Below are positions 8,836 to 27,939 of a DNA stretch of 64,000 nucleotides, piece after piece. The stretch comes from an uncultured Desulfospira sp. (GTDB lineage: Bacteria; Desulfobacterota; Desulfobacteria; Desulfobacterales; Desulfobacteraceae). The position numbers and the translations under genes were made by a program. The stretch covers positions 5,152,001-5,216,000 of the forward strand of contig OY760175.1 of NCBI GenBank assembly GCA_963663165.1, in the 5' to 3' direction. Position 1 is the stretch's first letter. Every line of letters begins with the position of its first letter. Under the pieces are notes generated by a model that saw only the letters and a list, made by a program, of their open reading frames with translations, did no database searches and was not told the DNA's origin.

Positions 8836-11631
8836 ATGTCTTTATCCAGCGCACTTTTCACAGGAACCAGTGGATTGAAGAATATGGGCAACGGCATGCA
8901 GGTGGTTGGTAACAACATTGCCAACACCAATACCGTTGGATTCAAGGGGGCTGCCTCCACGTTTGCTGATACCCTGTATGAAAATGTGGCCACCCAGGCC
9001 GGTACCGCACAGATGGGGCGAGGCATGTCCGTAGGGGATATTGCTACGGATTTCAGCCAGGGATCTTTTGAATCCACGGGCAATACCACGGACCTTTCCA
9101 TTGGCGGTGACGGGTTTTTTATCGTCAGCCAGCCCGATTCCGAAGAAAAATATTACACCCGGGCCGGTAATTTTTATTTTGATGAAGACGGTCAGCTGGT
9201 GAATCCGGAAGGGTATGTGGTCCAGGGCTGGGAACTGGATGAAGACACCGGAGAGGATGTCGGGGCCATCGGGGATCTGGTTCTTGAAGAGTTTACCTCT
9301 CCGCCAAAGGAAAGCACCACGGTTACCGCCATTACCAACCTGGATGCCGATGCGATTTCCCAGGCGGTTGTTTTGTCCAACGTCTGGGACTCTTCTGAAG
9401 ACGAATATATGGGGTCGGGCAATTATGAATACCAGACCGTTATCCAGGTATATGATTCCCTGGGGTCCACCCATGATGTGACCATTTATTATGATAAAAT
9501 TTCAGGCACGGAATGGGAGTACATCATTACCTGCAACCCGGAAGAAGACATGCGCAATCTGGTGCAGGGGACTGATGCCCAGGGCCTTTTGGCAAGAGGT
9601 TCCATTACCTTTAGTGAAAGTTCCGGTGATATCCTGGACCTGACCCTGGAGGAATTTACCGGCCGGATAGGGAATTTTACCGCCAACGGCCTGAACACAG
9701 TGGATGAAATTGAATACAATATTGTGGATTATGACGCCCTGTCTTTAGACGGTTACGGGTTCCAGTTCGAGTATGACGGCGCCAACTGGGGTTTTGCAGA
9801 CATTGATGGTGACGGCGTGGTCACCTCTGCGGATAAACCGGCCAACTATCCCAATGCTTATATTATCTATTCCGATGCCACTTCAGTTGAAATCTCATTT
9901 GACGGTTCAACTGATGAACCTGACCTGAAGATTGAGTTGTCCCAGCCGGCTGTGGCAACAGATTCATTCGGATTTGATATCAACGGGGAAGAAAGTATTC
10001 ATATTCAGGGCATTGAAGGGCTGACCTATACCGGAGATACGGCCAATGACAACACCAGCCTTTCCATTAACGATCCCGGGGTCATGACCCATGATACCGA
10101 GGATGTGGGGATTGTCTGGAATCCCGTGGCCCAGCAATGGTACTGGAGCAACCCGGAGCAGGCTGAAGATGAGGGCACCCTGCTAAGTGACGCCACCCTT
10201 GGCGGAGTGGACCAGGATGAAACCACATTTTTAAGCATAAAAAACGCATCGGAAATGGTCATGCTGGCCGATGACGTGACCCTTGCCGTGGACTACCGGA
10301 CCGGGGAATGGGACTGGAACATGCCGCTCAAAGCCGATGATTTTATAAATGAAACCTTTAATATCGGCCAGGGAAACAACAATCCCAGTGTCACTGTGGT
10401 GACTCAAGGAACCCAGGGCGCCATCGCCTCTACAGATGCCGGCGGCACATCCACTGCCGTCACCCTGACATGGGACGGGGCCGCCTGGGCGGCCAGTTCC
10501 GGCGGCGGACAGACCCAGATTGTCATTCTGACCTCCAGCAGCGACGATTCCACAGTTCAGTTCATGATCTGGGAAGCCGATGGGTCTACAACTCCCAGTA
10601 ACGGGGCATCCGTAGTCAAGTATTCCTTTAATACCCCCCTGACCACCACCGGCGGGGACACCATTGAGTTTACCATTGATCCGTCGCCTCCGGCAGAATA
10701 CCCCAATGCCGTGCTGACCACCTCCGGGGCCACCACCCTGGGCATCGGGATTGATCTGGACAATGATTCCAGTGTGGACCTGCAGATGATCACATCGGCC
10801 TCTGGTGCAGTTACAGTGCTTTCCGGCGGGCTGACCGCCACCTTTGACATTGACCCGGATACGGAACCGCCCAATTACTCGAATGCCACCCTGACCGGGG
10901 ACCAGACAGAGGTGATCATTGATCTTGACGGGTCCGGCAACGAAGGAGATGATGACGACATCGTCTTTACGTTTGAAAAGAACCTTGATTATGGTGCCAA
11001 CACGGATGTTTACGATAACCGGAGTGTTATTAATTTTGATATCCTGGGCTCTACGGCCTGGACCGCCATTGAAAAGGCCGGTATCACCAATACCGGGTAT
11101 TACTCGTTTACCGTAGATTTTCTGGGAGGCGATTACGGCACCACGGAAATGAACCTGGCCCTTGATTTCGGCACCCAGTTTGATGGTGAAAATTTTGTCA
11201 ACGACTCGTTATCCACCACCCAGTACGCCAAATCCTCTTCAACGGTATACCAGGACGCAGACGGGTATGCTGCCGGGGACCTGACCGGTGTGGATGTGAA
11301 TTCCGAAGGGGTGATTACCGGCATCTACTCAAACGGTCAGCTGATTCCGTTGTTCCGGGTGGGCCTGGCCAAGTTCTACAACAATTACGGGCTGTCCAAC
11401 GAGGGCGGCAACCTTTACTCCGAGACCAACGAGAGCGGCAACGCCATTACCAACAAGCCCGGAGAGAATGGCCTGGGCACCATTTCCCCCAATTCCCTTG
11501 AAATGTCCAATGTGGATATTTCAGACGAGTTCGTTGCCATGATCGAAATCCAGCGCGGGTACGAAGGAAACTCAAAAACCATCACCACCGTGGATGAAAT
11601 GATGGAAACCGTTATCAATATGAAACGGTAA
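8836..11631 (+). CDS. flgE: Flagellar hook protein FlgE (long, 931 aa)
   Basis: N-terminal GNNIANTNTVGFK and YTRAGNF; C-terminal LEMSNVDISDEFVAMIEIQRGYEGNSKTITTVDEM. Confidence 0.95.
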   Translation: MSLSSALFTGTSGLKNMGNGMQVVGNNIANTNTVGFKGAASTFADTLYENVATQAGTAQMGRGMSVGDIATDFSQGSFESTGNTTDLSIGGDGFFIVSQPDSEEKYYTRAGNFYFDEDGQLVNPEGYVVQGWELDEDTGEDVGAIGDLVLEEFTSPPKESTTVTAITNLDADAISQAVVLSNVWDSSEDEYMGSGNYEYQTVIQVYDSLGSTHDVTIYYDKISGTEWEYIITCNPEEDMRNLVQGTDAQGLLARGSITFSESSGDILDLTLEEFTGRIGNFTANGLNTVDEIEYNIVDYDALSLDGYGFQFEYDGANWGFADIDGDGVVTSADKPANYPNAYIIYSDATSVEISFDGSTDEPDLKIELSQPAVATDSFGFDINGEESIHIQGIEGLTYTGDTANDNTSLSINDPGVMTHDTEDVGIVWNPVAQQWYWSNPEQAEDEGTLLSDATLGGVDQDETTFLSIKNASEMVMLADDVTLAVDYRTGEWDWNMPLKADDFINETFNIGQGNNNPSVTVVTQGTQGAIASTDAGGTSTAVTLTWDGAAWAASSGGGQTQIVILTSSSDDSTVQFMIWEADGSTTPSNGASVVKYSFNTPLTTTGGDTIEFTIDPSPPAEYPNAVLTTSGATTLGIGIDLDNDSSVDLQMITSASGAVTVLSGGLTATFDIDPDTEPPNYSNATLTGDQTEVIIDLDGSGNEGDDDDIVFTFEKNLDYGANTDVYDNRSVINFDILGSTAWTAIEKAGITNTGYYSFTVDFLGGDYGTTEMNLALDFGTQFDGENFVNDSLSTTQYAKSSSTVYQDADGYAAGDLTGVDVNSEGVITGIYSNGQLIPLFRVGLAKFYNNYGLSNEGGNLYSETNESGNAITNKPGENGLGTISPNSLEMSNVDISDEFVAMIEIQRGYEGNSKTITTVDEMMETVINMKR

Positions 11632-12003: not shown

Positions 12004-12129
12004 TAAATTCTTAATGAACTTGAATATGCGGTGACCTTTTAAGGCCTTTGGGCCGGATTGGCTCAACGGCAGCCCAACATGGGGCGGTGCCGGGAAATTT
12101 CCGGTATCCGGCCCGGATCGGGGGAGATT

Positions 12130-12723
12130 TTGTTTAAAAAGAAATCGAAAAAAGAAGCGCCTGAAGAAAATAAAGAAGAAAAGGCCGAGGATGCGCCGGA
12201 TCAGGAATCAGGAGAACAGCCGGAGAAAAAATCAATCATCAAACGGCTTCTTTCAAAAAAAATGATATTGATCATTGGGGGTGTCCTGATCCTTGGCTTA
12301 GCCGGGGGCGGGGCCTGGTTTTTCTTTTTTTCCGGGTCTCCTGAACCGGAAACGGAACCTGCGACTGAACAGGCGGCCGCCGGGCAGGAAGGGGAAACGG
12401 TCGTGCCCGAGATCCTGTTTGAAGATATTGTTACCCTGGAACCTTTTGAGATGATTCCATTAAAGTCGGGATCTTCCATGCGGTCTGTGACGTTGAATGT
12501 TTCCATTGAGATCTTGGACCCGGAATCCCGGGCACAGGTGTATTCAAGGGAAGACCGGATACGGATTATCATCCAGGATAAGGTCAGGGAATATACCTGG
12601 CTTGACCTGAGAAGTGCTGAAGGAAAGATCCGGCTCAAATACGATCTTCTCCAGAGTATCAATCACCTGTTTTCAAAACCCATGGTCAGAAATTTGTACT
12701 TTACAACCCTTATAATGCAGTGA
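12130..12723 (+). CDS. fliL: Flagellar basal body-associated protein FliL
   Basis: Single TM (ILIIGGVLILGLAGGGAWFFFF), DLRSAEGKIRLKYDL and VRNLYFTTLIMQ; precedes fliM; TTG start after GGGGAG assumed (ORF open from 12058). Confidence 0.88.
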   Translation: MFKKKSKKEAPEENKEEKAEDAPDQESGEQPEKKSIIKRLLSKKMILIIGGVLILGLAGGGAWFFFFSGSPEPETEPATEQAAAGQEGETVVPEILFEDIVTLEPFEMIPLKSGSSMRSVTLNVSIEILDPESRAQVYSREDRIRIIIQDKVREYTWLDLRSAEGKIRLKYDLLQSINHLFSKPMVRNLYFTTLIMQ

Positions 12724-12730
12724 CAATGCC

Positions 12731-13723
12731 ATGAGTGAAATTCTATCCCAGGACGAAGTTGACAGTCTATTAGACGGCCTTGATTCAGGAGAGGTAGAAA
12801 CTGAAAAGGACGTGGCGGAAGCCCCGGAGGCTTCCGACGGTGTCAGCGTCTATGATTTTACCAGTCAGGATAAGGTGGTCCGGGCCCGGATGCCCACCTT
12901 TGATGTCATCAATGAACGGCTGTCCAGAGAGGTTCGGGCCACGCTGTCCTCCTTGCTCCAGACCAATGTGGATGTGGGGGCCAATCCCTTTGACACCTTG
13001 AAATTTTCAGAGTTTGTCAGAAGCCTGCCCGTTCCCACAAGCCTTCATGTGTTCCGGTTGGAACCCTTGAGAGGGCACGGCCTGGTAGTGTTTGAAAGCC
13101 AGCTGGTTTACAACCTCATTGATACCTTTTTCGGGGGAGAGGCCCTTGGAAAGGCCAGGGTTGAAGGCCGGGAGTTTACCACCATTGAAGAGGTCATGAT
13201 CAAAAAGGCCGTGGTGGCGGTGTTAAAAAATATTGAAGCGTCCTGGGCCCCCATTGAACCGGTTAAAACCTCTTTGATCCGTTCGGAAATGAACCCTCAG
13301 TTCACCGCCATTGTTCTGCCCACGGACCTGGTCATTGTCACCCGGTTTGAAATTGAACTGGAGCAGGCCGCCGGAAACCTGGTGGTCTGTTATCCTTATT
13401 CCATGATCGAGCCCATGCGGCACAAGTTGTCTTCCGGGGTCCAGGCGGAGATTGAAGAAATCGATACCACCTGGCAGAAAATGATCCGGGAGGTCATTCT
13501 CAACTCGGAAGTCGATTTGAAGATTATGCTGGGCAAGACGGAAATTACCGGGGAACGGTTGCTTTACATGCAGAAAGGGGACGTGATCCAGCTGGATAAC
13601 GACGCGGCAGACCCCCTGACCTGCTATGTGGACGGTCTGGAAAAGCTTAAAGGGTATATCGGGGTCCAGAGGGGATTCCAGGCATTCCAGATTATCGAAA
13701 AATTAATAACGGAATGTGGGTAA
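12731..13723 (+). CDS. fliM: Flagellar motor switch protein FliM
   Basis: N-terminal [11 protein letters not shown]heY-binding peptide, [26 protein letters not shown]. Confidence 0.96.
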
Positions 13724-17751: not shown

Positions 17752-19857
17752 ATGGCAGCAGCAGAACAAACCGGATTTATAGCCGGATTAAAAAGAGAAT
17801 CATCAGACATTCTAATGGTTGTCGCCTTTATCGGCATTCTCATGGCCATGATTCTCCCGTTGCATCCCATTGTTCTGGACTTCTTTCTGGCTCTGAACAT
17901 TTCCCTGGCCATTGTGGTTCTCATTGCCACCATGTATACCACGGCCCCCCTTGAATTTGCCATTTTCCCCTCTCTGCTGCTGGTGCTGACCTTGTTCCGG
18001 CTGTCTTTGAACGTGGCGTCCACAAGGCTGATCCTGCTTCACGGCAGTGAAGGCCCTCTGGCGGCCGGTGCCATTATCATGTCGTTCGGCAACTTTGTGG
18101 TGGGGGGCAATTATGTGGTGGGGCTGGTTATTTTTGTGATTCTGGTGCTGATCAATTTTCTGGTCATTACCAAAGGTGCCGGAAGGATCGCGGAAGTGGC
18201 CGCCCGGTTTACCCTGGACGCCATGCCCGGCAAGCAGATGGCCATTGATGCCGACCTGAACGCGGGAATGATTGATGAGGTTGAAGCCGGAGAGCGCCGG
18301 GCTGCCATTGCCAGGGAATCGGAATTTCACGGGGCCATGGACGGTGCGTCAAAATTTGTCCGGGGGGATGCCATTGCCGGCATTGTAATTACCCTGATCA
18401 ATATTGTGGGCGGGTTTGTCATCGGCGTGGTCCAGCAGGGCATGGAAATGGGGGAAGCCCTGACCAACTATACCCTGCTCACCGTGGGTGACGGTCTGGT
18501 GTCCCAGATCCCGGCCCTGTTGATTTCAGCGGCGGCAGGCCTTCTGGTGTCACGGTCCGGGGCTGAGACCAAAATGGGCAAGGCCTTTGCCAAACAGCTG
18601 CTGTCCAGTTCCACCCCGGTGTTTATCGGTTCGGTGATTATCTTCTGCATGGGGCTGATTCCGGGGCTGCCCTCAATTCCCTTTATGACCTTAGGGTTAA
18701 CCATGGGAACCCTGGCCTGGTATTTTCTCAAAGGCGAGGAAGAAAAAAAGGTGGCCAAAGAGCTGGAAAAAGCCAAAGCCGAAGCCCAGCCTGAAGGAAC
18801 GGGGCAGCCTGAAAACGTGGACCACCTCCTGTCTTTGGACACCATCGAGCTTGAAGTCGGATACGGGTTGATTCCCCTGGTGGACAAGCAGCAGGACGGC
18901 ACCCTTCTGGGCCGGATCAGGGCCATCCGGCGGCAGTTTGCCACGGAAATGGGGATTATCGTTCCCCCCATTCATATCCGGGACAACCTGAATTTAAGCC
19001 CTGCCCAGTACCGGCTCATGATCAAGGGGGTTGAAGCGGCCGGGGCCGAACTTATGGTCAAGCATCTGCTGGCCATGGATCCCGGCGGGGTGGCCCAGAA
19101 AATTGAGGGGATCGAAACCATTGAGCCGGCCTTTAACCTGCCGGCCCTCTGGATTCCCACAAACCGGGAAGAAGAGGCCAAATTTGCCGGGTACACCGTG
19201 GTGGACAACTCCACAGTCATTGCCACCCATTTAACGGAGATTTTAAGGGCCAATGCCCATGATCTTCTGGGCCGGCAGGATGTCCAGCACCTTATGGACA
19301 ACCTGGCCAAGACCAGCCCCAAGGCCGTGGAGGAACTAGTGCCCAACCTCTTAACCATCGGGGCGGTTCAAAAGGTCCTCCAGAATCTGTTAAAAGAGCG
19401 GATTCCCATCAGGGATCTGCTGACCATTGTGGAAACCCTGGCCGATTTCGCTCCCAAGGGAAAAGACCCGGACCTGCTCACAGAGTATGTCCGGCAGCGC
19501 ATTGCAAAGGGGATGTTAAGCCCATATCTCCAGGAGGGGAAGGTGCTGCACGTCCTTACCCTGGACCGGAAGCTCGAAGAAATTTTAACCAAAAATGTCA
19601 AGCGCACGGACCATGGGGCCTATCTTGCCCTTGATCCGGGCATGGTCCATGAGGTGGTCCAGGCCATATCAAAGGCGGTTGAAAAGCAGATTGCCATCAA
19701 CACCCCGCCGGTGATCATGACCTCGCCGGTCCTGCGCCGTCATTTAAGAAAGCTCATTGAGGCATCCCTGCCGACTGTTTTTGTGGTATCCCACGCGGAA
19801 ATCGTGGATGATATTAATTTAAAGGCCAGTGGAAAGGTGGTTTTAAAAGATGAATAA
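17752..19857 (+). CDS. flhA: Flagellar export protein FlhA
   Basis: EVAARFTLDAMPGKQMAIDADL and GAMDGASKFVRGDAIAG. Confidence 0.98.
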   Translation: MAAAEQTGFIAGLKRESSDILMVVAFIGILMAMILPLHPIVLDFFLALNISLAIVVLIATMYTTAPLEFAIFPSLLLVLTLFRLSLNVASTRLILLHGSEGPLAAGAIIMSFGNFVVGGNYVVGLVIFVILVLINFLVITKGAGRIAEVAARFTLDAMPGKQMAIDADLNAGMIDEVEAGERRAAIARESEFHGAMDGASKFVRGDAIAGIVITLINIVGGFVIGVVQQGMEMGEALTNYTLLTVGDGLVSQIPALLISAAAGLLVSRSGAETKMGKAFAKQLLSSSTPVFIGSVIIFCMGLIPGLPSIPFMTLGLTMGTLAWYFLKGEEEKKVAKELEKAKAEAQPEGTGQPENVDHLLSLDTIELEVGYGLIPLVDKQQDGTLLGRIRAIRRQFATEMGIIVPPIHIRDNLNLSPAQYRLMIKGVEAAGAELMVKHLLAMDPGGVAQKIEGIETIEPAFNLPALWIPTNREEEAKFAGYTVVDNSTVIATHLTEILRANAHDLLGRQDVQHLMDNLAKTSPKAVEELVPNLLTIGAVQKVLQNLLKERIPIRDLLTIVETLADFAPKGKDPDLLTEYVRQRIAKGMLSPYLQEGKVLHVLTLDRKLEEILTKNVKRTDHGAYLALDPGMVHEVVQAISKAVEKQIAINTPPVIMTSPVLRRHLRKLIEASLPTVFVVSHAEIVDDINLKASGKVVLKDE

Positions 19858-21217
19858 ACGGGTATTCAAAGCGGCTAATATCCAGGAGGCCATCGCCAGC
19901 ATTAAAGAGGAACTTGGACCGGATGCCATGATCCTGTCCACCCGAAAAGTGCCAAGGAAAATCAAAGATCCTTATGCCGGGGACTTAGTGGAGGTAGAAG
20001 CCGCCTTAGATGAAGAAGCGGCCGCTGCCGCCCCCATGAGACAAGGTGTCTTTAACAGATCCGAACCCCGCAGGTGGCCCCTCGGGGAACCCCTCAGGGA
20101 AACTTATAAGGAATCCCCCAGGGAACCCCGCAGGGATCCGTTCAAGGCGTCTTCCCGGGGGGCTGTTGAAGATCCTGTAAGGGGCAGCCGGACAGGGATG
20201 GGAACCTTTCCCCAGGATCTGCTGGACCAGGTCCGGGACGATATTTCCCAGATCAAGGATATGATCTCATTTGCCGGCTTAGGGTTCGGTATCGTGGACA
20301 TGGCGGCTGGCAATTTTGAAACCAAGGGGATTCTGGCCGCTTTCTTAAGGGCCGGGGTCAGTGAAACCCTTGCCTGTTCCCTGATCCGGGACGCAAGCCG
20401 GGCAACGGCCAGGAATGTTGATCCCAAAGCCTTATCCCCAAAGGACCGGTCAGAGCGGATACGGGAGATCAAGAAAAAGGTCATGGCCCTGTGCCTTTCA
20501 CGGATTCGTGCCGGGGAATGGTTTGAACAGCCCGGCAAAATCCCGGGAAGCCGGGTGGCGGCATTTGTAGGCCCCACAGGGGTGGGAAAGACCACCACCA
20601 TTGCCAAGCTGGCCGCATTTTTAAGTTTCAAAAAGAAGTACAGGGTGGGGCTGATTTCCATTGATAATTACCGGATCGGGGCATTTGAGCAGCTCAAGGC
20701 CTATGCGTCCATTATGGGGCTTCCCTGTGTCCAGGCCTTTAATGCCAGGGATCTGGCCTTAGGCGTGGACCGGATGGCATCCATGGATATGGTCCTGATT
20801 GATACGGCCGGCCACAGCCACCATGACCGGAAAAAACTGGATGAAATTTTAAACCTTATCCGGTCGGATTTTCCCATATCTGTTCATTTGGCCTTGAGTG
20901 TTACCTCTGAATTGATTAATATGAAAGAGGCGGTTTCGGCGTTTTCAGCTTTTGATCCGGATACCCTTGTATTCACCAAAATAGACGAGACCAGACGGTG
21001 CGGCAAAATACTGGATCAGCTGAATGCGGTGAATCTTCCGGTTTCCCTGGTGACCAACGGTCAGAAAGTGCCTGAAGATTTGATTATTCCCGACCGGCAG
21101 ACCCTGTTGAGAATCATTCTGGGGCAGGGCCCTTTATACGGGATTGACACCCTGGCACCGGCAATGGAACCATTTGGGGAAACCCAAAAGGGGCAGGCGT
21201 TACCCAAAGGAGCGTAA
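19850..21217 (+). CDS. flhF: SRP-family GTPase FlhF
   Basis: GPTGVGKTTTIAKLAA, DTAG, TKIDE and TNGQKVPED; follows flhA. Confidence 0.95.
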   Translation: MNKRVFKAANIQEAIASIKEELGPDAMILSTRKVPRKIKDPYAGDLVEVEAALDEEAAAAAPMRQGVFNRSEPRRWPLGEPLRETYKESPREPRRDPFKASSRGAVEDPVRGSRTGMGTFPQDLLDQVRDDISQIKDMISFAGLGFGIVDMAAGNFETKGILAAFLRAGVSETLACSLIRDASRATARNVDPKALSPKDRSERIREIKKKVMALCLSRIRAGEWFEQPGKIPGSRVAAFVGPTGVGKTTTIAKLAAFLSFKKKYRVGLISIDNYRIGAFEQLKAYASIMGLPCVQAFNARDLALGVDRMASMDMVLIDTAGHSHHDRKKLDEILNLIRSDFPISVHLALSVTSELINMKEAVSAFSAFDPDTLVFTKIDETRRCGKILDQLNAVNLPVSLVTNGQKVPEDLIIPDRQTLLRIILGQGPLYGIDTLAPAMEPFGETQKGQALPKGA

Positions 21218-21222
21218 AACGA

Positions 21223-22104
21223 TTGGATCAGGCAAAAGGCTTAAGGGATTTGGCGAAAACCCGGCAACAAAAAAGGAGTGTTCACCCCATGGCAGCTCAA
21301 AATGCCCCCAGGGTCATTGCCGTCACCAGTGGAAAAGGCGGTGTCGGGAAAACAAATATTGTCGGTAACCTGGCGGTTTCCCTGGCCCGGAAGGGCAAAC
21401 GGATCGTTATTATTGACGCCGATGTCGGGCTGGCCAACATTGATATCCTTTTTAACCTGCGTCCCAAATACAGTATCCGCCACGTGGTGACGTCTGAAAA
21501 GCGCCTGGACCAGGTCATGGTCACCTCTGAGCACGGGATTAAAATCATTCCCGGCGGATCAGGGTTTGCCGACCTGACCAACCTTACCCAGGGAGAAAAA
21601 CTCAACCTGCTCAGTGAATTTGAAACCCTGGCCCCCCAGGCGGATCTGATCCTGGTGGATACCGGTGCCGGGATTTCTTCAAACGTTCTATACTTTAACT
21701 CAGCCGCCGATGACTGTGTGGTGGTTTCCACGGCAGAGCCCACATCCATTACCGATGCCTATGCCCTGATGAAAGTCATGTCCCAGGAATACGGGACAAG
21801 ACGGTTTAAGCTTATCGTCAATGTCGTAGAGTCTGAAAAAGAGGGCAAGCGGGTGTTTGCCACCTTAAGCCAGGCCCTGGACAAATTTTTGAAAAATGTG
21901 GTCCTGGAGTTTCTCGGATATATCCCTTTTGATAAACAGGTTCAACAATCGGTCCGCAAAAGGAGCCTGTTCATGGACATGGTTTCTGATACCCCGGCCG
22001 CTCTGGCCATGGACCGGATTGCCCGTGATCTTGAGAACAGTCCCAGCAGGGGTGACGGAAATTTGACGTTTTTTATGGACAAGGTGTTCCGGACCGGAAC
22101 CTGA
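21223..22104 (+). CDS. flhG: MinD-like flagellar number regulator FlhG/FleN
   Basis: N-terminal DQAKGLR activator motif (supports the TTG start), SGKGGVGKT and EPTSITDAYA. Confidence 0.95.
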   Translation: MDQAKGLRDLAKTRQQKRSVHPMAAQNAPRVIAVTSGKGGVGKTNIVGNLAVSLARKGKRIVIIDADVGLANIDILFNLRPKYSIRHVVTSEKRLDQVMVTSEHGIKIIPGGSGFADLTNLTQGEKLNLLSEFETLAPQADLILVDTGAGISSNVLYFNSAADDCVVVSTAEPTSITDAYALMKVMSQEYGTRRFKLIVNVVESEKEGKRVFATLSQALDKFLKNVVLEFLGYIPFDKQVQQSVRKRSLFMDMVSDTPAALAMDRIARDLENSPSRGDGNLTFFMDKVFRTGT

Positions 22105-22296: not shown

Positions 22297-23046
22297 GTGA
22301 CCAGAACAGAGAAAAGCACATTAAAAAAGGATCATGCCTGGCGTCAGAACGCCATTGTTGAATATGCGTTTCTGGTGAAGCAGATTTCCTCCCAGTTTTC
22401 CATGAGACTGCCTTCCAGCGTGCTGTTCGACGAACTGGTGTCGGCCGGGTCCCTCGGCCTGATCGATGCTGTGGACAAGTTTGACCCTGAACGGCATGTC
22501 AGCTTGAAAACCTATGCCAAGTACCGGATAAAGGGTGCCATTCTAGATGAGCTTCGAAGCATGGATACCTATTCAAGATCCATGCGCAAAAAAATCCAGG
22601 ATATTACCAAAGCCGTAAAATTAATTGAGGACGAAAAGGGCGCGCCGGCCACTGATCAGGAAACAGCAAACGCCTTAGGCATTGATCTTGCATCTTATCA
22701 GGATATGTTAAGGGATATTCACAGTGCTGCGGTTTTGAGCCTTGATGAGTTCATTAAAACAAAGAAAAACGATACATCCTCCCAGACCCGGTTCCAGGTA
22801 GGGCTCAAGGGAGAAGAAAACCCGGCAGACGATCTGGCCAGAAAAGAACTCAAACAGGTTTTAGTGGATACCATAAAGACCCTGACCGAAAAAGAGCAAA
22901 TGGTGGTTTCCCTGTATTATTATGACGAGCTGACCTTAAAGGAAATCGGTGAAATGCTTTCTTTGACCGAATCCCGGATCTGTCAGATCCATACCGGCAT
23001 ACTGGTTAAAATGAAGGCCAGGATGCAGGGGTACTTAGGGGAATAG
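22297..23046 (+). CDS. fliA: Flagellar sigma factor FliA (sigma-28)
   Basis: GLIDAVDKFDP, YRIKGAILDELR and LYYYDELTLKEIGEMLSLTESRICQIH; follows flhG. Confidence 0.95.
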   Translation: MTRTEKSTLKKDHAWRQNAIVEYAFLVKQISSQFSMRLPSSVLFDELVSAGSLGLIDAVDKFDPERHVSLKTYAKYRIKGAILDELRSMDTYSRSMRKKIQDITKAVKLIEDEKGAPATDQETANALGIDLASYQDMLRDIHSAAVLSLDEFIKTKKNDTSSQTRFQVGLKGEENPADDLARKELKQVLVDTIKTLTEKEQMVVSLYYYDELTLKEIGEMLSLTESRICQIHTGILVKMKARMQGYLGE

Positions 23047-23174: not shown

Positions 23175-25052
23175 ATGCCCGAACAAGAAGAAGATCTAAT
23201 CTCCCAGGATGATATTGACGCGCTGTTGGATTCATCCCTTCTTGGGGGTGATGACGAAGACGAAAACTCGGATGAAGATTCGGCTGAAGATGAACTTGGG
23301 GAATTGTCCCAGGATGATATTGACAGCCTTCTCAACGGTCCGGGACCGGATTCGGGCGGTGATGGGGATGATTCTGGTGGCGATGATTCAGGCGAGTTAT
23401 CCCAGGATGACATCGACCGGATGATGGGCGGGAACTCTGAATCGGAGGCGGATACTGCAGAGGAAGAAGAGGCCGGGGAGCTGTCCCAGGATGACATTGA
23501 CCGGATGATGGGCGGGAACTCTGAACCGGAGGCGGATACTGCAGAGGAAGAAGAGGCCGGGGAACTGTCTCAGGATGACATCGACCGGATGATGGGCGGG
23601 AACTCTGAACCGGAGGCGGATACTGCAGAGGAAGAAGAGGCCGGGGAACTGTCTCAGGATGACATTGACCGGATGATGGGCGGGAACTCTGAACCGGAGG
23701 CGGATACTGCCGGGGAAGAAGAAGCCGGGGAACTGTCCCAGGATGATATCGACCGGATGATGAACTTTGATGCCCCGGCAGAAGAAACCGGGGAGGCTGA
23801 CGAAGAAGATGTGGAGCTGATCTCTCAGGAAGATATCCAGCGCCTGATGAATACTTCGGGTGATGACGCCGGGGAAGAACCGGCTGCCCAGGAAGATAAC
23901 CCGCCGGCTGATGAAGAAGACATGGAGTTAATCTCCCAGGATGATATTGACGGCCTGATTCCGGAGGATGCCCCCCCGGAACCCGAGAGTATTGTCCCGG
24001 AAAGTGAACCCGAGGAGGCGGTTGAGGATGATTTTATCATTGACGAATCTGAAGCCGTTGATCCCGCAGATGCCCTGATTACCCAGGAAACCATTGATGA
24101 ACTGCTTGCAAAGGGGCCTGAACCTGAACCGGAACCTGAGCCGGAAGAACCCCCTCAGGCTGAAGATTCAATTGAAGACTTGGGCGAAGACTCCAGTGAG
24201 CCCATTGTCCTGGACGGTGATGAAGCGCCTGATGATCTGGATGATCTGGACGGGGTGTCCCAGGATGATATTGACAGCCTGCTCCAGGATGAAGATGACG
24301 ACGCCATGGGGGATGATGACGATGATATTTTAATATCCCAGGACGATATTGATACCCTGCTCATGGCGGCGGATCAGGAGGATGAAGATGTCCTTGGCGG
24401 CTTATTGGACGAAGAAGACAAGTTAGAAGGCTTTGATGAAGACGATGTTTTAGACGGTGATGACGAAGGCGACCAGGTGGTCCTGGAAGGCGGTGACGAG
24501 GTCCTTGATAGGGAAGGGGATGATGCAGATGCGCCGGTCAAGAAACGTTGGTATAAATCCAAGCTCATGGTGGCCATGCTGTCGGGAGTTTTGGTTCTGG
24601 GCATCATGATTCCGGCGGCCTATTTCCTGTTTTTTTCAAAACCGCCGGTCAAGATTCCTGAAAACCAGCCCGTTCAAACGGCTGATGTTCAGGATGTGGC
24701 GGTTGAAACCGTTACCCTTGATCCAAAGCCCTACGTTGAAATAAAAAAATCAGGGTCCATTGAGTTGAACAGTTTTCTGATCCTGGCATCCGATGAAGCA
24801 AGCGGCATTGCCTATGTCCAGGCAGACGTCACCATTGATTATACCGATCAGCGGGCATACCATGAAATCCAGGGGAACCTGCCCTTTTACAGGGATTTGA
24901 TTTTCGAGTCCATTCAAAAAAGCCTGGACCGGGACAAGGAAAATAAAGTCACCAAATCGGATTTGATCTGGGAAGTGGAAAATACCTTGAAAAAGGTGTT
25001 GCCGGCCCATTATATAGAAAGGGTGAAGTTTACCGTATTTAAGACGACTTAA
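23175..25052 (+). CDS. FliL-like membrane protein with a ~450-aa acidic N-terminal region carrying 12 [LIV]-[ST]-Q-[DE]-x-I-[DQ]-x-[LM]-[LMI] motifs
   Basis: Motifs counted in the translation; KKRWYKSK precedes one TM; the C-terminal ~110 aa (IELNSFLI...FYRDLIF...IERVKFTVFK) resembles FliL. Confidence 0.7.
   Translation: MPEQEEDLISQDDIDALLDSSLLGGDDEDENSDEDSAEDELGELSQDDIDSLLNGPGPDSGGDGDDSGGDDSGELSQDDIDRMMGGNSESEADTAEEEEAGELSQDDIDRMMGGNSEPEADTAEEEEAGELSQDDIDRMMGGNSEPEADTAEEEEAGELSQDDIDRMMGGNSEPEADTAGEEEAGELSQDDIDRMMNFDAPAEETGEADEEDVELISQEDIQRLMNTSGDDAGEEPAAQEDNPPADEEDMELISQDDIDGLIPEDAPPEPESIVPESEPEEAVEDDFIIDESEAVDPADALITQETIDELLAKGPEPEPEPEPEEPPQAEDSIEDLGEDSSEPIVLDGDEAPDDLDDLDGVSQDDIDSLLQDEDDDAMGDDDDDILISQDDIDTLLMAADQEDEDVLGGLLDEEDKLEGFDEDDVLDGDDEGDQVVLEGGDEVLDREGDDADAPVKKRWYKSKLMVAMLSGVLVLGIMIPAAYFLFFSKPPVKIPENQPVQTADVQDVAVETVTLDPKPYVEIKKSGSIELNSFLILASDEASGIAYVQADVTIDYTDQRAYHEIQGNLPFYRDLIFESIQKSLDRDKENKVTKSDLIWEVENTLKKVLPAHYIERVKFTVFKTT
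23391..23762 (+). repeat. In-frame 84-bp tandem repeat (28 aa, ~4.4 copies) inside the FliL-like gene
   Basis: Units start at 23391, 23475, 23559, 23643 and 23727 and encode GELSQDDIDRMMGGNSEPEADTAEEEEA. Confidence 0.95.
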
Positions 25053-25092: not shown

Positions 25093-25386
25093 GTGACAAC
25101 CATTCCGGGCCACAATCAGGTCCTGCAACATTCCGGGGCTGCCCAGGAAGCCAGCCAGCAGGCCCATTCCCCAAAACCATCCCCTGAGCATGCCGCCGGG
25201 ACGGCCCAGGCCCAGGAGGTTATCCGGAATTCAACCATTCAGGCATCTGACGAGTCTGAACGATTGAAAAAAGAAAAAAAAAAGGAACGGGCAGAAGCCG
25301 CTAAAAAGAAAGCCTCTGCTGACCCAAAGGAAGATCAGTTCCCGGATCCGGATGCCCCGGGAGGCCTGTTGGATACAATTATATGA
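25093..25386 (+). CDS. Small hypothetical protein in the flagellar operon
   Basis: AAGGAGG RBS, GTG start, stop overlaps the next ATG (ATGA). Confidence 0.7.
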   Translation: MTTIPGHNQVLQHSGAAQEASQQAHSPKPSPEHAAGTAQAQEVIRNSTIQASDESERLKKEKKKERAEAAKKKASADPKEDQFPDPDAPGGLLDTII

Positions 25387-25988
25387 CCCAGTTGCTCTCA
25401 ATTGAATTTTTAGTTGCCGCGTTAATAATTATAAACTGTTTTCTGGTTATTTTTATATGGATCATTATCCGGCGGGTCAACCGGATCTGTGTCGAACACC
25501 AGGCGGGCAGCAGGGCAGCAGAGAACCATGAACCGGATAAGGAGGGTTTAGAGGCGGTTTGCGGGTCTTCGAGAAAAGTGCTGGATCTTTTGGAATCCCT
25601 GGTCAGGGAGGCAACCGATGCGGCCCAAAATTTTGAAGATCAGATTAAAGAAAAACGGACCGTATCCAAAAAGTTGAACAAGGCCCTGGACTCACGGATT
25701 ATCAGTATCAACCTGCTGTTGTCCCGGTCCGAAGCTCTCCAGAAGAAGTTTGAGGAACAGCAGCTCAAATGGCTGGACCAGGCCGCCCTCAAAACAGCCT
25801 GCCAGCCCGTGCCTTTTTCAGGCAGCATGAACATCCTGGACCAGCAGAACCGGATTATTGACCTGTACCATGGCAATAAAGACGTGGATACTATTGCACA
25901 GACCCTTTCCATTCCCAAAGAAGAGGTCCGGCTTGTGATTGACCTTAAGGAAAAGTTCAGGGCAATGGAGCAGGAGACAAGAGAATAG
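25383..25988 (+). CDS. Membrane-anchored coiled-coil protein with C-terminal HTH-like segment (DUF2802/SwrB-like)
   Basis: N-terminal TM, central coiled coil, C-terminal IIDLYHGNKDVDTIAQTLSIPKEEVRLVIDL; downstream of fliA. Confidence 0.6.
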   Translation: MTQLLSIEFLVAALIIINCFLVIFIWIIIRRVNRICVEHQAGSRAAENHEPDKEGLEAVCGSSRKVLDLLESLVREATDAAQNFEDQIKEKRTVSKKLNKALDSRIISINLLLSRSEALQKKFEEQQLKWLDQAALKTACQPVPFSGSMNILDQQNRIIDLYHGNKDVDTIAQTLSIPKEEVRLVIDLKEKFRAMEQETRE

Positions 25989-26025: not shown

Positions 26026-27657
26026 ATGATCCCGGGCATCCCTGTTGGAAAGGCTGATATGATCCTGGCCCGATCCGGATCTGCCGGGTTGGATACCCTG
26101 ACGGGGGGAAAGGAAAACGCTGTGCTGACCGCCAGGGTCATGGGGATGGCCAAAGGCCCCGGACAGGCCATGCTGATGATCAATGGTCAGGAAACGCTTG
26201 TTAAAACAGAGCTTTCCCTTGTGCCGGGCCAGAAGTTGCGGCTTACGGTTAGCCACCAGGCAAAGGATACCGTTGTTCTCAAGCCTGCAGAGCCTGTGGC
26301 GGTATCCGGAAAAGTAATCCTTGGAACCCAGATTCAACCATCCGATATCGTCCTGCCCCGGTCAGAAACAGCCGGATCATCGTCCCGGCAGATATTCAAG
26401 GAAAACACCGTCCTGACCGCCAACGTCCTGGAGCAGTCGCCCGGTTCCGGACAGGCCCGGCTGATGATCAATGGCCGGGAAATGGTGGTCAAAACCGGCC
26501 TTTCCCTGACACCGGGTCAGGACTTGCCCCTTAAGGTTTCCCAGACAACGGATACCGTTGTTTTCAAACCGGCTGGATCCATGGAGGCATCCGGAAAAAT
26601 GATCCTTGAAACGCATATGGGGAAGTCTGAAATTGTTCTGCCCCGGTCCGGAACGGCCGGATCACAACCCCTTCCGGTTTTTAAGAAAAACACGGTCCTG
26701 ACCGCCAGGGTCATGGGGCAGCCGCCCGGACCCGGACAGGCCCGGCTTATGATCAACGGCCAGGAACTGGTGGTGAAAACCGATCTTTCCCTTGCGCCGG
26801 GGCAGGATTTGCAGCTTCGGGTTTCACAGGCAACAGATACGGTTGTCCTTAAACCGGTGGGCCCCATGGATACCCCCGCCTCCCCGGGCCTTGGCCGGCT
26901 GCTTACCTTTTTTGCAAAAGAAACCGGAATTCAGGATATGTTCAAGGCAGATGATCCGTCCCTGCCGGCGGCCCTGGGCCGGACCGCCTTAAAATCCGAT
27001 AAGGCGGAGCCGGGTTTTCTGCCAAAACTGCTGGAAACCGGGGGATTGCTTCTGGAAAAAAAACTAAGCGCGTTTATCCGGGATGGCAAACTGGATGTGC
27101 TTGAAAAAAATTTTTCAGCCATTCTTGAACAGGATACCAAGGGTGGGGCCATGAAACTTGCCGGGGAGAGCGTGGCCAAAGGCGGTCAAAACAGCCCGGC
27201 AGCGGTCCTGCTGGATACCATTGAAAATCTTCAGATCATGAATAGCCAAGCGGATTCCGGGCGATATCTGCTCGCATTCCCCGTGTTAGAGGATTCCGGC
27301 TTTAATTTCGGGCAGATTTATTTTGATCTGGGCGGAAAAAAAGAAGCCAGAGACGGAAAAGAAGAAAAAAATATCAAGGTCTCTTTTCTTCTGGACATGA
27401 CCCGCCTTGGCCGGGTCCGGGCAGATTTTTCCATCCTGGACCGTGCGGTGAGCGGCCGGTTTCTGCTGGAGACTGAAGATATCTGCTCTTTTACGCAATC
27501 CAGGATATCCGATCTAGGCTCCAGACTTGAAAAAATCGGGTATCACCTGATTAACATAGACTGCCAGGTGGCCCAAAAAAATGAGCTGGCCCCTTATGTG
27601 TTCATGGAATCCATGCAGGAAAAACAGCCGGACCGGGTGGTCAATATTGTCATTTGA
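26026..27657 (+). CDS. Second FliK-like protein with three N-terminal ~95-aa repeats
   Basis: C-terminal VSFLLDMTRLGRVRADF...LGSRLEKIGY (Flg_hook-like); precedes a FlhB C-terminal-domain gene; KENxVLTA...LMING...PGQ.L.L.VS occurs three times. Confidence 0.7.
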   Translation: MIPGIPVGKADMILARSGSAGLDTLTGGKENAVLTARVMGMAKGPGQAMLMINGQETLVKTELSLVPGQKLRLTVSHQAKDTVVLKPAEPVAVSGKVILGTQIQPSDIVLPRSETAGSSSRQIFKENTVLTANVLEQSPGSGQARLMINGREMVVKTGLSLTPGQDLPLKVSQTTDTVVFKPAGSMEASGKMILETHMGKSEIVLPRSGTAGSQPLPVFKKNTVLTARVMGQPPGPGQARLMINGQELVVKTDLSLAPGQDLQLRVSQATDTVVLKPVGPMDTPASPGLGRLLTFFAKETGIQDMFKADDPSLPAALGRTALKSDKAEPGFLPKLLETGGLLLEKKLSAFIRDGKLDVLEKNFSAILEQDTKGGAMKLAGESVAKGGQNSPAAVLLDTIENLQIMNSQADSGRYLLAFPVLEDSGFNFGQIYFDLGGKKEARDGKEEKNIKVSFLLDMTRLGRVRADFSILDRAVSGRFLLETEDICSFTQSRISDLGSRLEKIGYHLINIDCQVAQKNELAPYVFMESMQEKQPDRVVNIVI

Positions 27658-27669
27658 CAGGATGGAAAC

Positions 27670-27939
27670 GTGACCAGGAAACCGATAAAAAAGGCCGTGG
27701 CCTTAAGGTACGATAGAACAAAAGACCCGGCCCCGAGGGTAACCGCCAAAGGCAAGGGGCCGGTGGCACAAAAGATCATTGAGCTTGCCCAAAAACATGA
27801 TATTCCTATAAAAGATGACCCTGACCTTATCGAAGTCCTTTCCACTCTGGATATAGACCAGGAAATTCCCCCGGAACTTTATGTGGCTGTGGCCGAATTA
27901 TTGGCCTTTGTTTATTCCTTAAACAAGGAAAAAGGCTAA
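27670..27939 (+). CDS. Stand-alone FlhB C-terminal domain protein (EscU/YscU/HrcU family, FlhX-like)
   Basis: KAVALRYD...APRVTAKGKGPVAQKII...IPPELYVAVAELLAFVY, similar to the C-terminus of this window's FlhB. Confidence 0.92.
   Translation: MTRKPIKKAVALRYDRTKDPAPRVTAKGKGPVAQKIIELAQKHDIPIKDDPDLIEVLSTLDIDQEIPPELYVAVAELLAFVYSLNKEKG

Follow-up and report, generated by a model that had tools for sequence, protein, structure and literature searches.

A FliL paralogue with an array of FliM-type motifs behind fliA in Desulfobacterales, a candidate motor-anchored dock for FlhG

The gene directly 3' of fliA in the flagellar cluster of an uncultured Desulfospira sp. (gene order flhF-flhG-fliA-X) encodes a putative membrane protein, here called X, with a long run of FliM-like motifs, and the question raised by this locus is which protein such an array would bind and where in the cell. 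The window, meaning the whole 64,000-nucleotide stretch of DNA analysed, had received a first-pass annotation in which X was proposed to be a CheY~P scaffold at the motor; its features are collected in Table 1. The acidic tail of about 450 residues described there is confirmed, with all 12 motifs present as written (ISQDDIDALL, LSQDDIDSLL, LSQDDIDRMM five times, ISQEDIQRLM, ISQDDIDGLI, ITQETIDELL, VSQDDIDSLL and ISQDDIDTLL). A purine-rich AAGAGGT stretch is found just 5' of the X ATG.

Table 1. Positions of X, its parts and neighbouring flagellar genes (nucleotides of the window)
Feature	Position	Strand	Basis or remark
X	23175..25052	+	FliL paralogue bearing an array of EIDAL-like motifs; open reading frame of 625 aa
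N-terminal tail of X, aa 1-455	23175..24539	+	Acidic, mostly disordered; 12 motifs
Motif starts	23199, 23304, 23397, 23481, 23565, 23649, 23733, 23820, 23931, 24078, 24255, 24333	+	Residues 9, 44, 75, 103, 131, 159, 187, 216, 253, 302, 361, 387
84-bp tandem array	23400..23762	+	4.3 units, 95% identity; yields five LSQDDIDRMM copies
Second short conserved motif V-V/I-L-E	24477..24497	+	About 25 aa before membrane helix
Basic patch KKRWYKSK and single membrane helix, aa 456-487	24540..24635	+	Hydropathy, charge bias, model
FliL-fold domain, aa 525-625	24747..25049	+	Probably periplasmic; Foldseek, VIA-align
canonical fliL	12058..12723	+	PF03748, E 8.8e-13
fliM	12731..13723	+	Own EIDAL-type motif at about 12743-12772
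flhF (SRP-type GTPase)	19850..21217	+	Sequence and position; still present in flagellum-less clade
flhG (MinD-like ATPase), proposed partner of X	21223..22104	+	Matches solved FleN/FlhG, E 1.4e-60
fliA (sigma-28)	22297..23046	+	Pfam sigma-70 regions; deleted in flagellum-less clade
DUF6115 membrane protein	25383..25988	+	After X; weak DUF2802 (FipA domain) likeness

Aspartate and glutamate make up 40% of the tail, and 10,000 shuffles of its sequence gave at most 1 match each to the pattern that finds 12 in the real tail. A six-frame scan of the genome with the strict pattern returned X, FliM and a single unrelated 462-codon frame near 2.48 Mb, the last of which looks incidental. In the predicted model of whole X, 10 of the 12 motifs are helical over a short stretch and the linkers between them have low confidence. 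X has both the consensus and the predicted short helix in a flexible region that are expected of an EIDAL-type docking motif. The consensus of 770 motif copies from the family, LISQDDIDxLL, agrees with FliM at S, Q, D, D, L and L, and the likeness to the FliM N-terminal peptide noted for X is conserved across the family. The copies nevertheless differ from FliM systematically, with D for E and I for V; the D is found in 89% of the 770 motifs, at a position that is E in each of the 10 local FliM starts. The 84-bp tandem array is, by its sequence, one recent expansion, and since five of the 12 motifs stem from it the number of independent motifs in X is about eight. In L001, the closest relative, a separate 28-amino acid repeat with a different linker occurs in three units, indicating that copy number changes quickly. 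The V-V/I-L-E motif is visible in most alignment rows that reach its region, and other short motifs, unlike that of FliM, are also conserved in the tail.

The membrane anchor also agrees with the first description. A hydrophobic helix is defined by hydropathy at residues 464-487 and extends over 459-487 in the predicted model; five lysine or arginine residues lie in the 12 residues before it and two after. Because of this charge bias, and because FliL topology has a periplasmic domain (the solved FliL domain is titled periplasmic), the tail is probably cytoplasmic, as had been argued earlier from the positive-inside rule, and X is predicted to have a single N-in membrane helix ahead of the FliL-fold domain.

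The claim of a FliL-like C-terminal domain holds by structure and fails the Pfam threshold. X scores 15.1 bits against Pfam FliL (PF03748), below the 24.6 cut-off, and E is about 0.005 against two NCBIfam FliL models; elsewhere in the family 6 of 30 close members match PF03748 weakly and 2 of 14 distant members exceed the cut-off. A sequence search of the C-terminal alignment against the sequences of solved structures gave no match. The C-terminal domain is confident in the predicted model, and a structural model of this domain built from 30 relatives returned FliL or a Campylobacter jejuni motor scaffold in all of the top 10 Foldseek rows (best E 8.9e-5, Helicobacter pylori FliL). VIA-align superposed the domain onto two FliL structures with Z 12.2 (rmsd 3.2, 99 aligned) and Z 12.0 (rmsd 3.2, 102 aligned), the next-best matches being stomatin-like domains with Z 8.7. 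The family profile also picks up the canonical fliL of the same genome (E 7e-8; 95% in profile comparison). X is taken as a FliL paralogue because FliL structures match it best, the family profile finds canonical fliL and two of the 14 distant members pass Pfam. The canonical gene that had been placed at 12130 is present, with possible starts at 12058, 12079 and 12130. A third FliL-domain protein of 279 amino acids with a lipoprotein-like start lies at G000:C1:2369736-2370596 (-), not within the flagellar clusters, and passes the PF03748 cut-off with E 2.2e-7.

Some sources automatically label members of the X family as FimV. This identity was rejected, as the Pfam and NCBIfam models gave X no FimV C-terminal domain and no LysM domain; the FimV C-terminal domain was also not found over cut-off in 8 of 8 genomes searched. 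The CheZ catalytic domain (PF04344) was likewise not matched in X by Pfam.

A search with the C-terminal part of X found 40 family proteins among 505 candidates, and a locus search yielded 30 loci, mostly titled Desulfospira, Desulfobacter, Desulfobacula or Desulfobacteraceae. The family profile search gave 156 proteins, 150 of the 156 being listed, and 134 of the 136 family proteins of at least 300 amino acids carry motifs, with 1-16 copies each, which supplies the copy-number survey that had been suggested for relatives. The position of the gene is closely kept: X follows flhF-flhG-fliA in 25 of the 30 loci and flhG directly in 2, with 3 ending too soon, and a DUF6115 gene is downstream in 29. 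Within a class-wide sample of 201 genomes, 81 match the wide profile, weak canonical-fliL matches included, and 119 have FliM. In the taxonomic family of the source organism 31 of 38 genomes match the wide profile, and the five without FliM are all without X. Twenty regions from distant genomes comprised 13 motif-bearing X, 6 syntenic orthologs without motifs that adjoin an intact flhG, and 1 canonical fliL.

The tree of FliL domains gathers 27 motif-bearing rows in one clade (100/99) that contains neither the motif-less orthologs nor canonical FliL, the latter being separate; two wrong-protein rows and two mislabelled canonical FliL rows are included in the tree and leave the 27-row clade unaffected. 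Orthology of X to the fliL before fliM is not borne out, as X falls in a separate clade and the genome has its canonical fliL at 12058. On these comparisons X defines a Desulfobacterales family distinct from canonical FliL. A wider span across the phylum was not supported: 23 matches lie outside the order, and all 8 of those inspected are short FliL proteins beside fliM or fliN. A protein atlas returned a single unnamed cluster at 0.95; a further cluster that is 42% FliL and two that include some FliN_N members count as leads only. Among the loci, both X and flhA are broken into two frames at G130:C1:4298860-4305144 (a single-contig genome in which flagellar CheY was not found among the 55 of 127 candidates scored), from sequencing error or decay. 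L082, from a genome (G194) of the source organism's taxonomic family, has a divergent flagellar cluster with FliM 39% identical and motAB-like genes adjoining fliL.

Several neighbours of X are unusual in their own right. The DUF6115 protein (25383-25988) presumably resembles Bacillus SwrB, whose gene follows sigD. It shows a weak match to the DUF2802 (FipA) domain, E 0.0019 in L022, and FipA binds FlhF according to PMC11620751; the DUF6115 protein may be the FlhF-binding landmark of the group. Between X and this gene there is a 97-amino acid open reading frame (25093-25386) without family match; flagellated relatives conserve it, and L015, L022 and L109 lack it. Further downstream, 26026-27939 encodes a 543-amino acid protein that contains internal repeats and matches the FliK C-terminal domain weakly; the protein encoded next is an FlhB C-terminal domain on its own. 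The hook protein FlgE (8836-11631) is unusually long at 931 amino acids, and two flagellins of 796 and 960 amino acids are encoded upstream of the window.

The FliM motif is the CheY-P site according to PMC6946799, and FlhG appears as its second ligand in three further sources (10.1101/2022.04.21.489128, PMC12826062, PMC12327844). The first of these reports that the motif is necessary and sufficient for FlhG binding in Shewanella, that FliM stimulates the FlhG ATPase in Vibrio and that the Vibrio FliM exchange E9A disturbs control of flagellar number and not switching. The E exchanged there is the one that D replaces in most X motifs. CheY-P and FlhG are the two ligands named for the motif in the cited papers. 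The source genome has both candidates, flhG being two genes upstream of X and cheX-cheY beside the fliF cluster. Two of the three known FliM-binding residues of FlhG are kept in the alignment: all 32 rows have the lysine that corresponds to K177, and the F215 equivalent is mostly kept (tyrosine in a flagellum-less clade and its sisters), while the R207 equivalent is threonine in the source genome and mostly serine, threonine or asparagine in relatives. A complex prediction of FlhG with X residues 352-412 scored 0.01 against a mark of 0.32 and speaks neither way.

A conceivable reading of low probability has CheY-P as the main ligand of the array close to the motor, with the array acting as sink or buffer or supplying CheX with CheY-P to dephosphorylate. 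This reading would explain the use of the CheY-P site of FliM, and it suits both a genome with cheX-cheY, four CheA dimer domains and no match in a search for CheZ and a sample in which a CheY match was obtained for 71 of 80 genomes; it is countered by X orthologs that lack motifs in CheY-bearing genomes (G001, G075, G198 and G199) and by motif-bearing X found both with CheZ-family matches (G005, G022, G036 and G069) and without. The same distribution rejects the proposal that X replaces CheZ.

A further comparison comes from loci in which the cluster is stripped. In six (L015, L022, L107, L109, L110 and L111) flhG is joined directly to X and fliA is gone; the four that reach fliN (L015, L022, L107 and L111) have only an flhA stub ahead of flhF, and five of the six show an flhA stub or no export genes between fliN and flhF, where the sequence reaches. 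Four of the six are in the FliL-domain tree, where they form a clade (100/99) beside loci titled Desulfobacula. Three genomes were searched: G049 (97% complete, 170 contigs), G201 and G202 (2.6-2.7 Mb; the completeness figure is for G049). A single contig of G049 shows clean losses of pilZ-cheX-cheY, of one sigma-54 regulator with flgBC-fliE, of fliIJ, and of the hook genes, the export genes and fliA; it keeps the sigma-54 activator, a TPR gene, fliF, fliG, fliH, a 227-codon frame that we take to be MotE-like, fliL, fliM, fliN, flhF, flhG, X and the DUF6115 gene. For G049 an assembly gap was rejected as the cause because the deletions lie within one contig with intact neighbours. The stripped cluster was seen in L081/L022 (G049 contig C124), L015, L107, L109, L110 and L111, with motAB elsewhere. 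At L121 (G201 contig C198) a second copy of the fliM start is fused to sequence that lies upstream of fliL, the fliL domain itself being absent.

CheW gave 0 matches in the three genomes compared with 9-13 in 4 of 4 control genomes. Neither a flagellar CheY ortholog nor flagellin was found in G049, G201 or G202, the best CheY matches being 34-37% in larger proteins (G049 and G201) against 71-89% in three controls, and FlhA and the CheA dimer domain were not found in G049 and G201. Flagellin was missed also in 11 other genomes of 68 and CheY in 6 others of 80, mostly fragmented, so the single-gene absences are weak, and the case for loss of the flagellum and of chemotaxis is carried by the in-place deletions and the total absence of CheW. 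G049 and G201 both have motAB; the source genome has two motAB-like pairs (G000:C1:1466936-1468525 and 2290327-2291923), of which G201 keeps both and G049 at least one. MinC was found in G201, G202 and the source genome, which has minCDE, and was not found in G049. FliM of the flagellum-less clade still has its own motif, and X carries 4-6 copies compared with 5-8 in flagellated relatives, the first copy being degenerate.

As the deletions are shared, the loss probably predates the split of these lineages, which are separated by dS of 0.14-0.46. A cluster that is only decaying is unlikely over this distance, with dN/dS of 0.03-0.28 for seven kept genes: FlhG 0.09-0.19, FlhF 0.16-0.20, FliN 0.03-0.15, FliM 0.16-0.26, FliG 0.28, FliF 0.21 and the DUF6115 protein 0.15-0.21. 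For X, three disjoint flagellum-less pairs gave pN/pS of 0.32 in motifs, 0.77 in linkers (Fisher p 2e-5 for the difference) and 0.35 in the FliL domain, and two flagellated pairs gave 0.12, 0.33 and 0.13; closer pairs tend to higher ratios, and selecting the motif columns by pattern biases them towards conservation. The motif-to-linker ratio is similar in both groups, and all parts of X are looser in the flagellum-less clade. A tail that is a low-complexity spacer, its copies a by-product of repeat expansion, is highly improbable on these values: the recent tandem origin of five copies, the range from 1 to 16 and the six orthologs with none would suit it, but in many families of the order motifs persist between diverging linkers, nearly all long family members carry a motif and the flagellated pairs constrain motifs more than linkers.

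Purifying selection on the motifs in a clade whose three searched genomes are without CheY and CheW means that they do something without CheY, which speaks against the CheY-P reading unless X survives there as a residue or for another receiver domain. The weaker selection and fewer copies in the same clade fit the loss of one partner and are a point in favour of CheY-P. The part of the first-pass annotation that is not supported is therefore CheY-P as sole partner, since the FliM peptide binds FlhG too and the CheY-less clade keeps the motifs under selection; the FliL fold, the cytoplasmic tail and the FliM-like motifs of the proposed scaffold stand. It is unlikely that the helices bind another of the kept proteins (C-ring proteins, FliH, FlhF, the sigma-54 activator or the DUF6115 protein) or each other as a polar hub, with the likeness to FliM due to descent or convergence. 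All of these candidate genes are kept in G049, the D-for-E and I-for-V exchanges suggest a tuned or different partner and the further conserved motifs of the tail would fit one, but the consensus equals FliM at six positions and the cited papers give this motif CheY-P and FlhG as ligands.

The preferred reading, held at about even probability, is that X is anchored at the motor and docks FlhG multivalently, with CheY-P as a possible further ligand in motile species. FlhG rather than CheY-P is favoured as the lasting partner because X is kept where flagellum and chemotaxis genes are lost. The membrane helix and periplasmic FliL domain would place X at the flagellar basal body, as for FliL, with the disordered cytoplasmic tail presenting many docking helices of the FliM N-terminal type. 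FlhG, which binds the FliM helix in other bacteria, would be gathered beside the existing MS/C ring, and the local excess would switch off FlhF and prevent a second basal body. Where the species is motile, CheY-P may be bound by these helices as well, and one array could serve both. Against an FlhG dock, the alignments show that the R207 equivalent is not kept, that D replaces the FliM E and that six orthologs are without motifs; the lower motif selection and copy number of the CheY-less clade also count against it. A broader proposal is tentative and on balance doubtful: Desulfobacterales may have a second FliL dedicated to the multivalent docking of FlhG, and the Desulfobacula-related clade would keep it in a selection-maintained motor base without filament or chemotaxis (MS ring, C ring, stator, two FliLs, FlhF and FlhG) for a non-swimming job, for instance as a mark of the pole, a guard of division or a load sensor.

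A 2025 review (PMC12826062) describes landmark proteins and partners of FlhG outside the gammaproteobacteria as a question still open. A FliL-anchored array of FliM peptides would be a concrete answer to how FlhG is held at an existing flagellum, and it raises the question of competition between CheY-P and FlhG for shared sites. As a natural deletion experiment, the stripped cluster suggests that a motor base can be kept for a non-motility function. No description of the stripped cluster or of a FliL domain joined to an EIDAL array was found in the open-licence literature searched, in agreement with the earlier remark that no protein of this architecture was known; the parts of X are individually known, and their combination would be a new architecture as far as the search reached.

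Compared with known systems, X is closest in build to FliL (PF03748; 7sgn from H. pylori and 6ahq from V. alginolyticus), sharing the basic patch, one membrane helix, a linker, the same periplasmic fold (Z about 12) and a place in a flagellar cluster. It differs in falling below the Pfam cut-off, in forming a clade apart from the canonical fliL of the same genome, in its position after fliA rather than before fliM and in its 455-amino acid motif-bearing tail. The motifs resemble the N-terminal EIDAL peptide of FliM/FliY as a short helix in a flexible region, and X differs from these proteins by its 1-16 copies, by being a membrane protein outside the C ring and by D for the conserved E. The CheZ C-terminal peptide is a similar acidic amphipathic motif, but X has no CheZ catalytic domain and the source genome no CheZ match. 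HubP has an acidic-repeat make-up, and HubP/FimV carries a LysM domain. Like X, HubP/FimV is a single-pass membrane protein with a long cytoplasmic region, and it is tied to FlhF/FlhG placement in PMC12826062 and 10.1101/2022.04.21.489128. X has the opposite topology, a FliL domain in place of LysM and no FimV C-terminal domain, and the comparison is one of role and not of homology. For the stripped clade the comparison is with C. jejuni, where the block on polar division depends on FlhG, FlhF, FliF, FliM and FliN, export and rod genes playing no part in it (PMC3228812). C. jejuni is flagellated, unlike the clade, and a division role of this type is uncertain here because MinC is found in G201, G202 and the source genome; the clade nevertheless keeps the same five proteins, FlhG, FlhF, FliF, FliM and FliN, and has dropped the export and rod genes.
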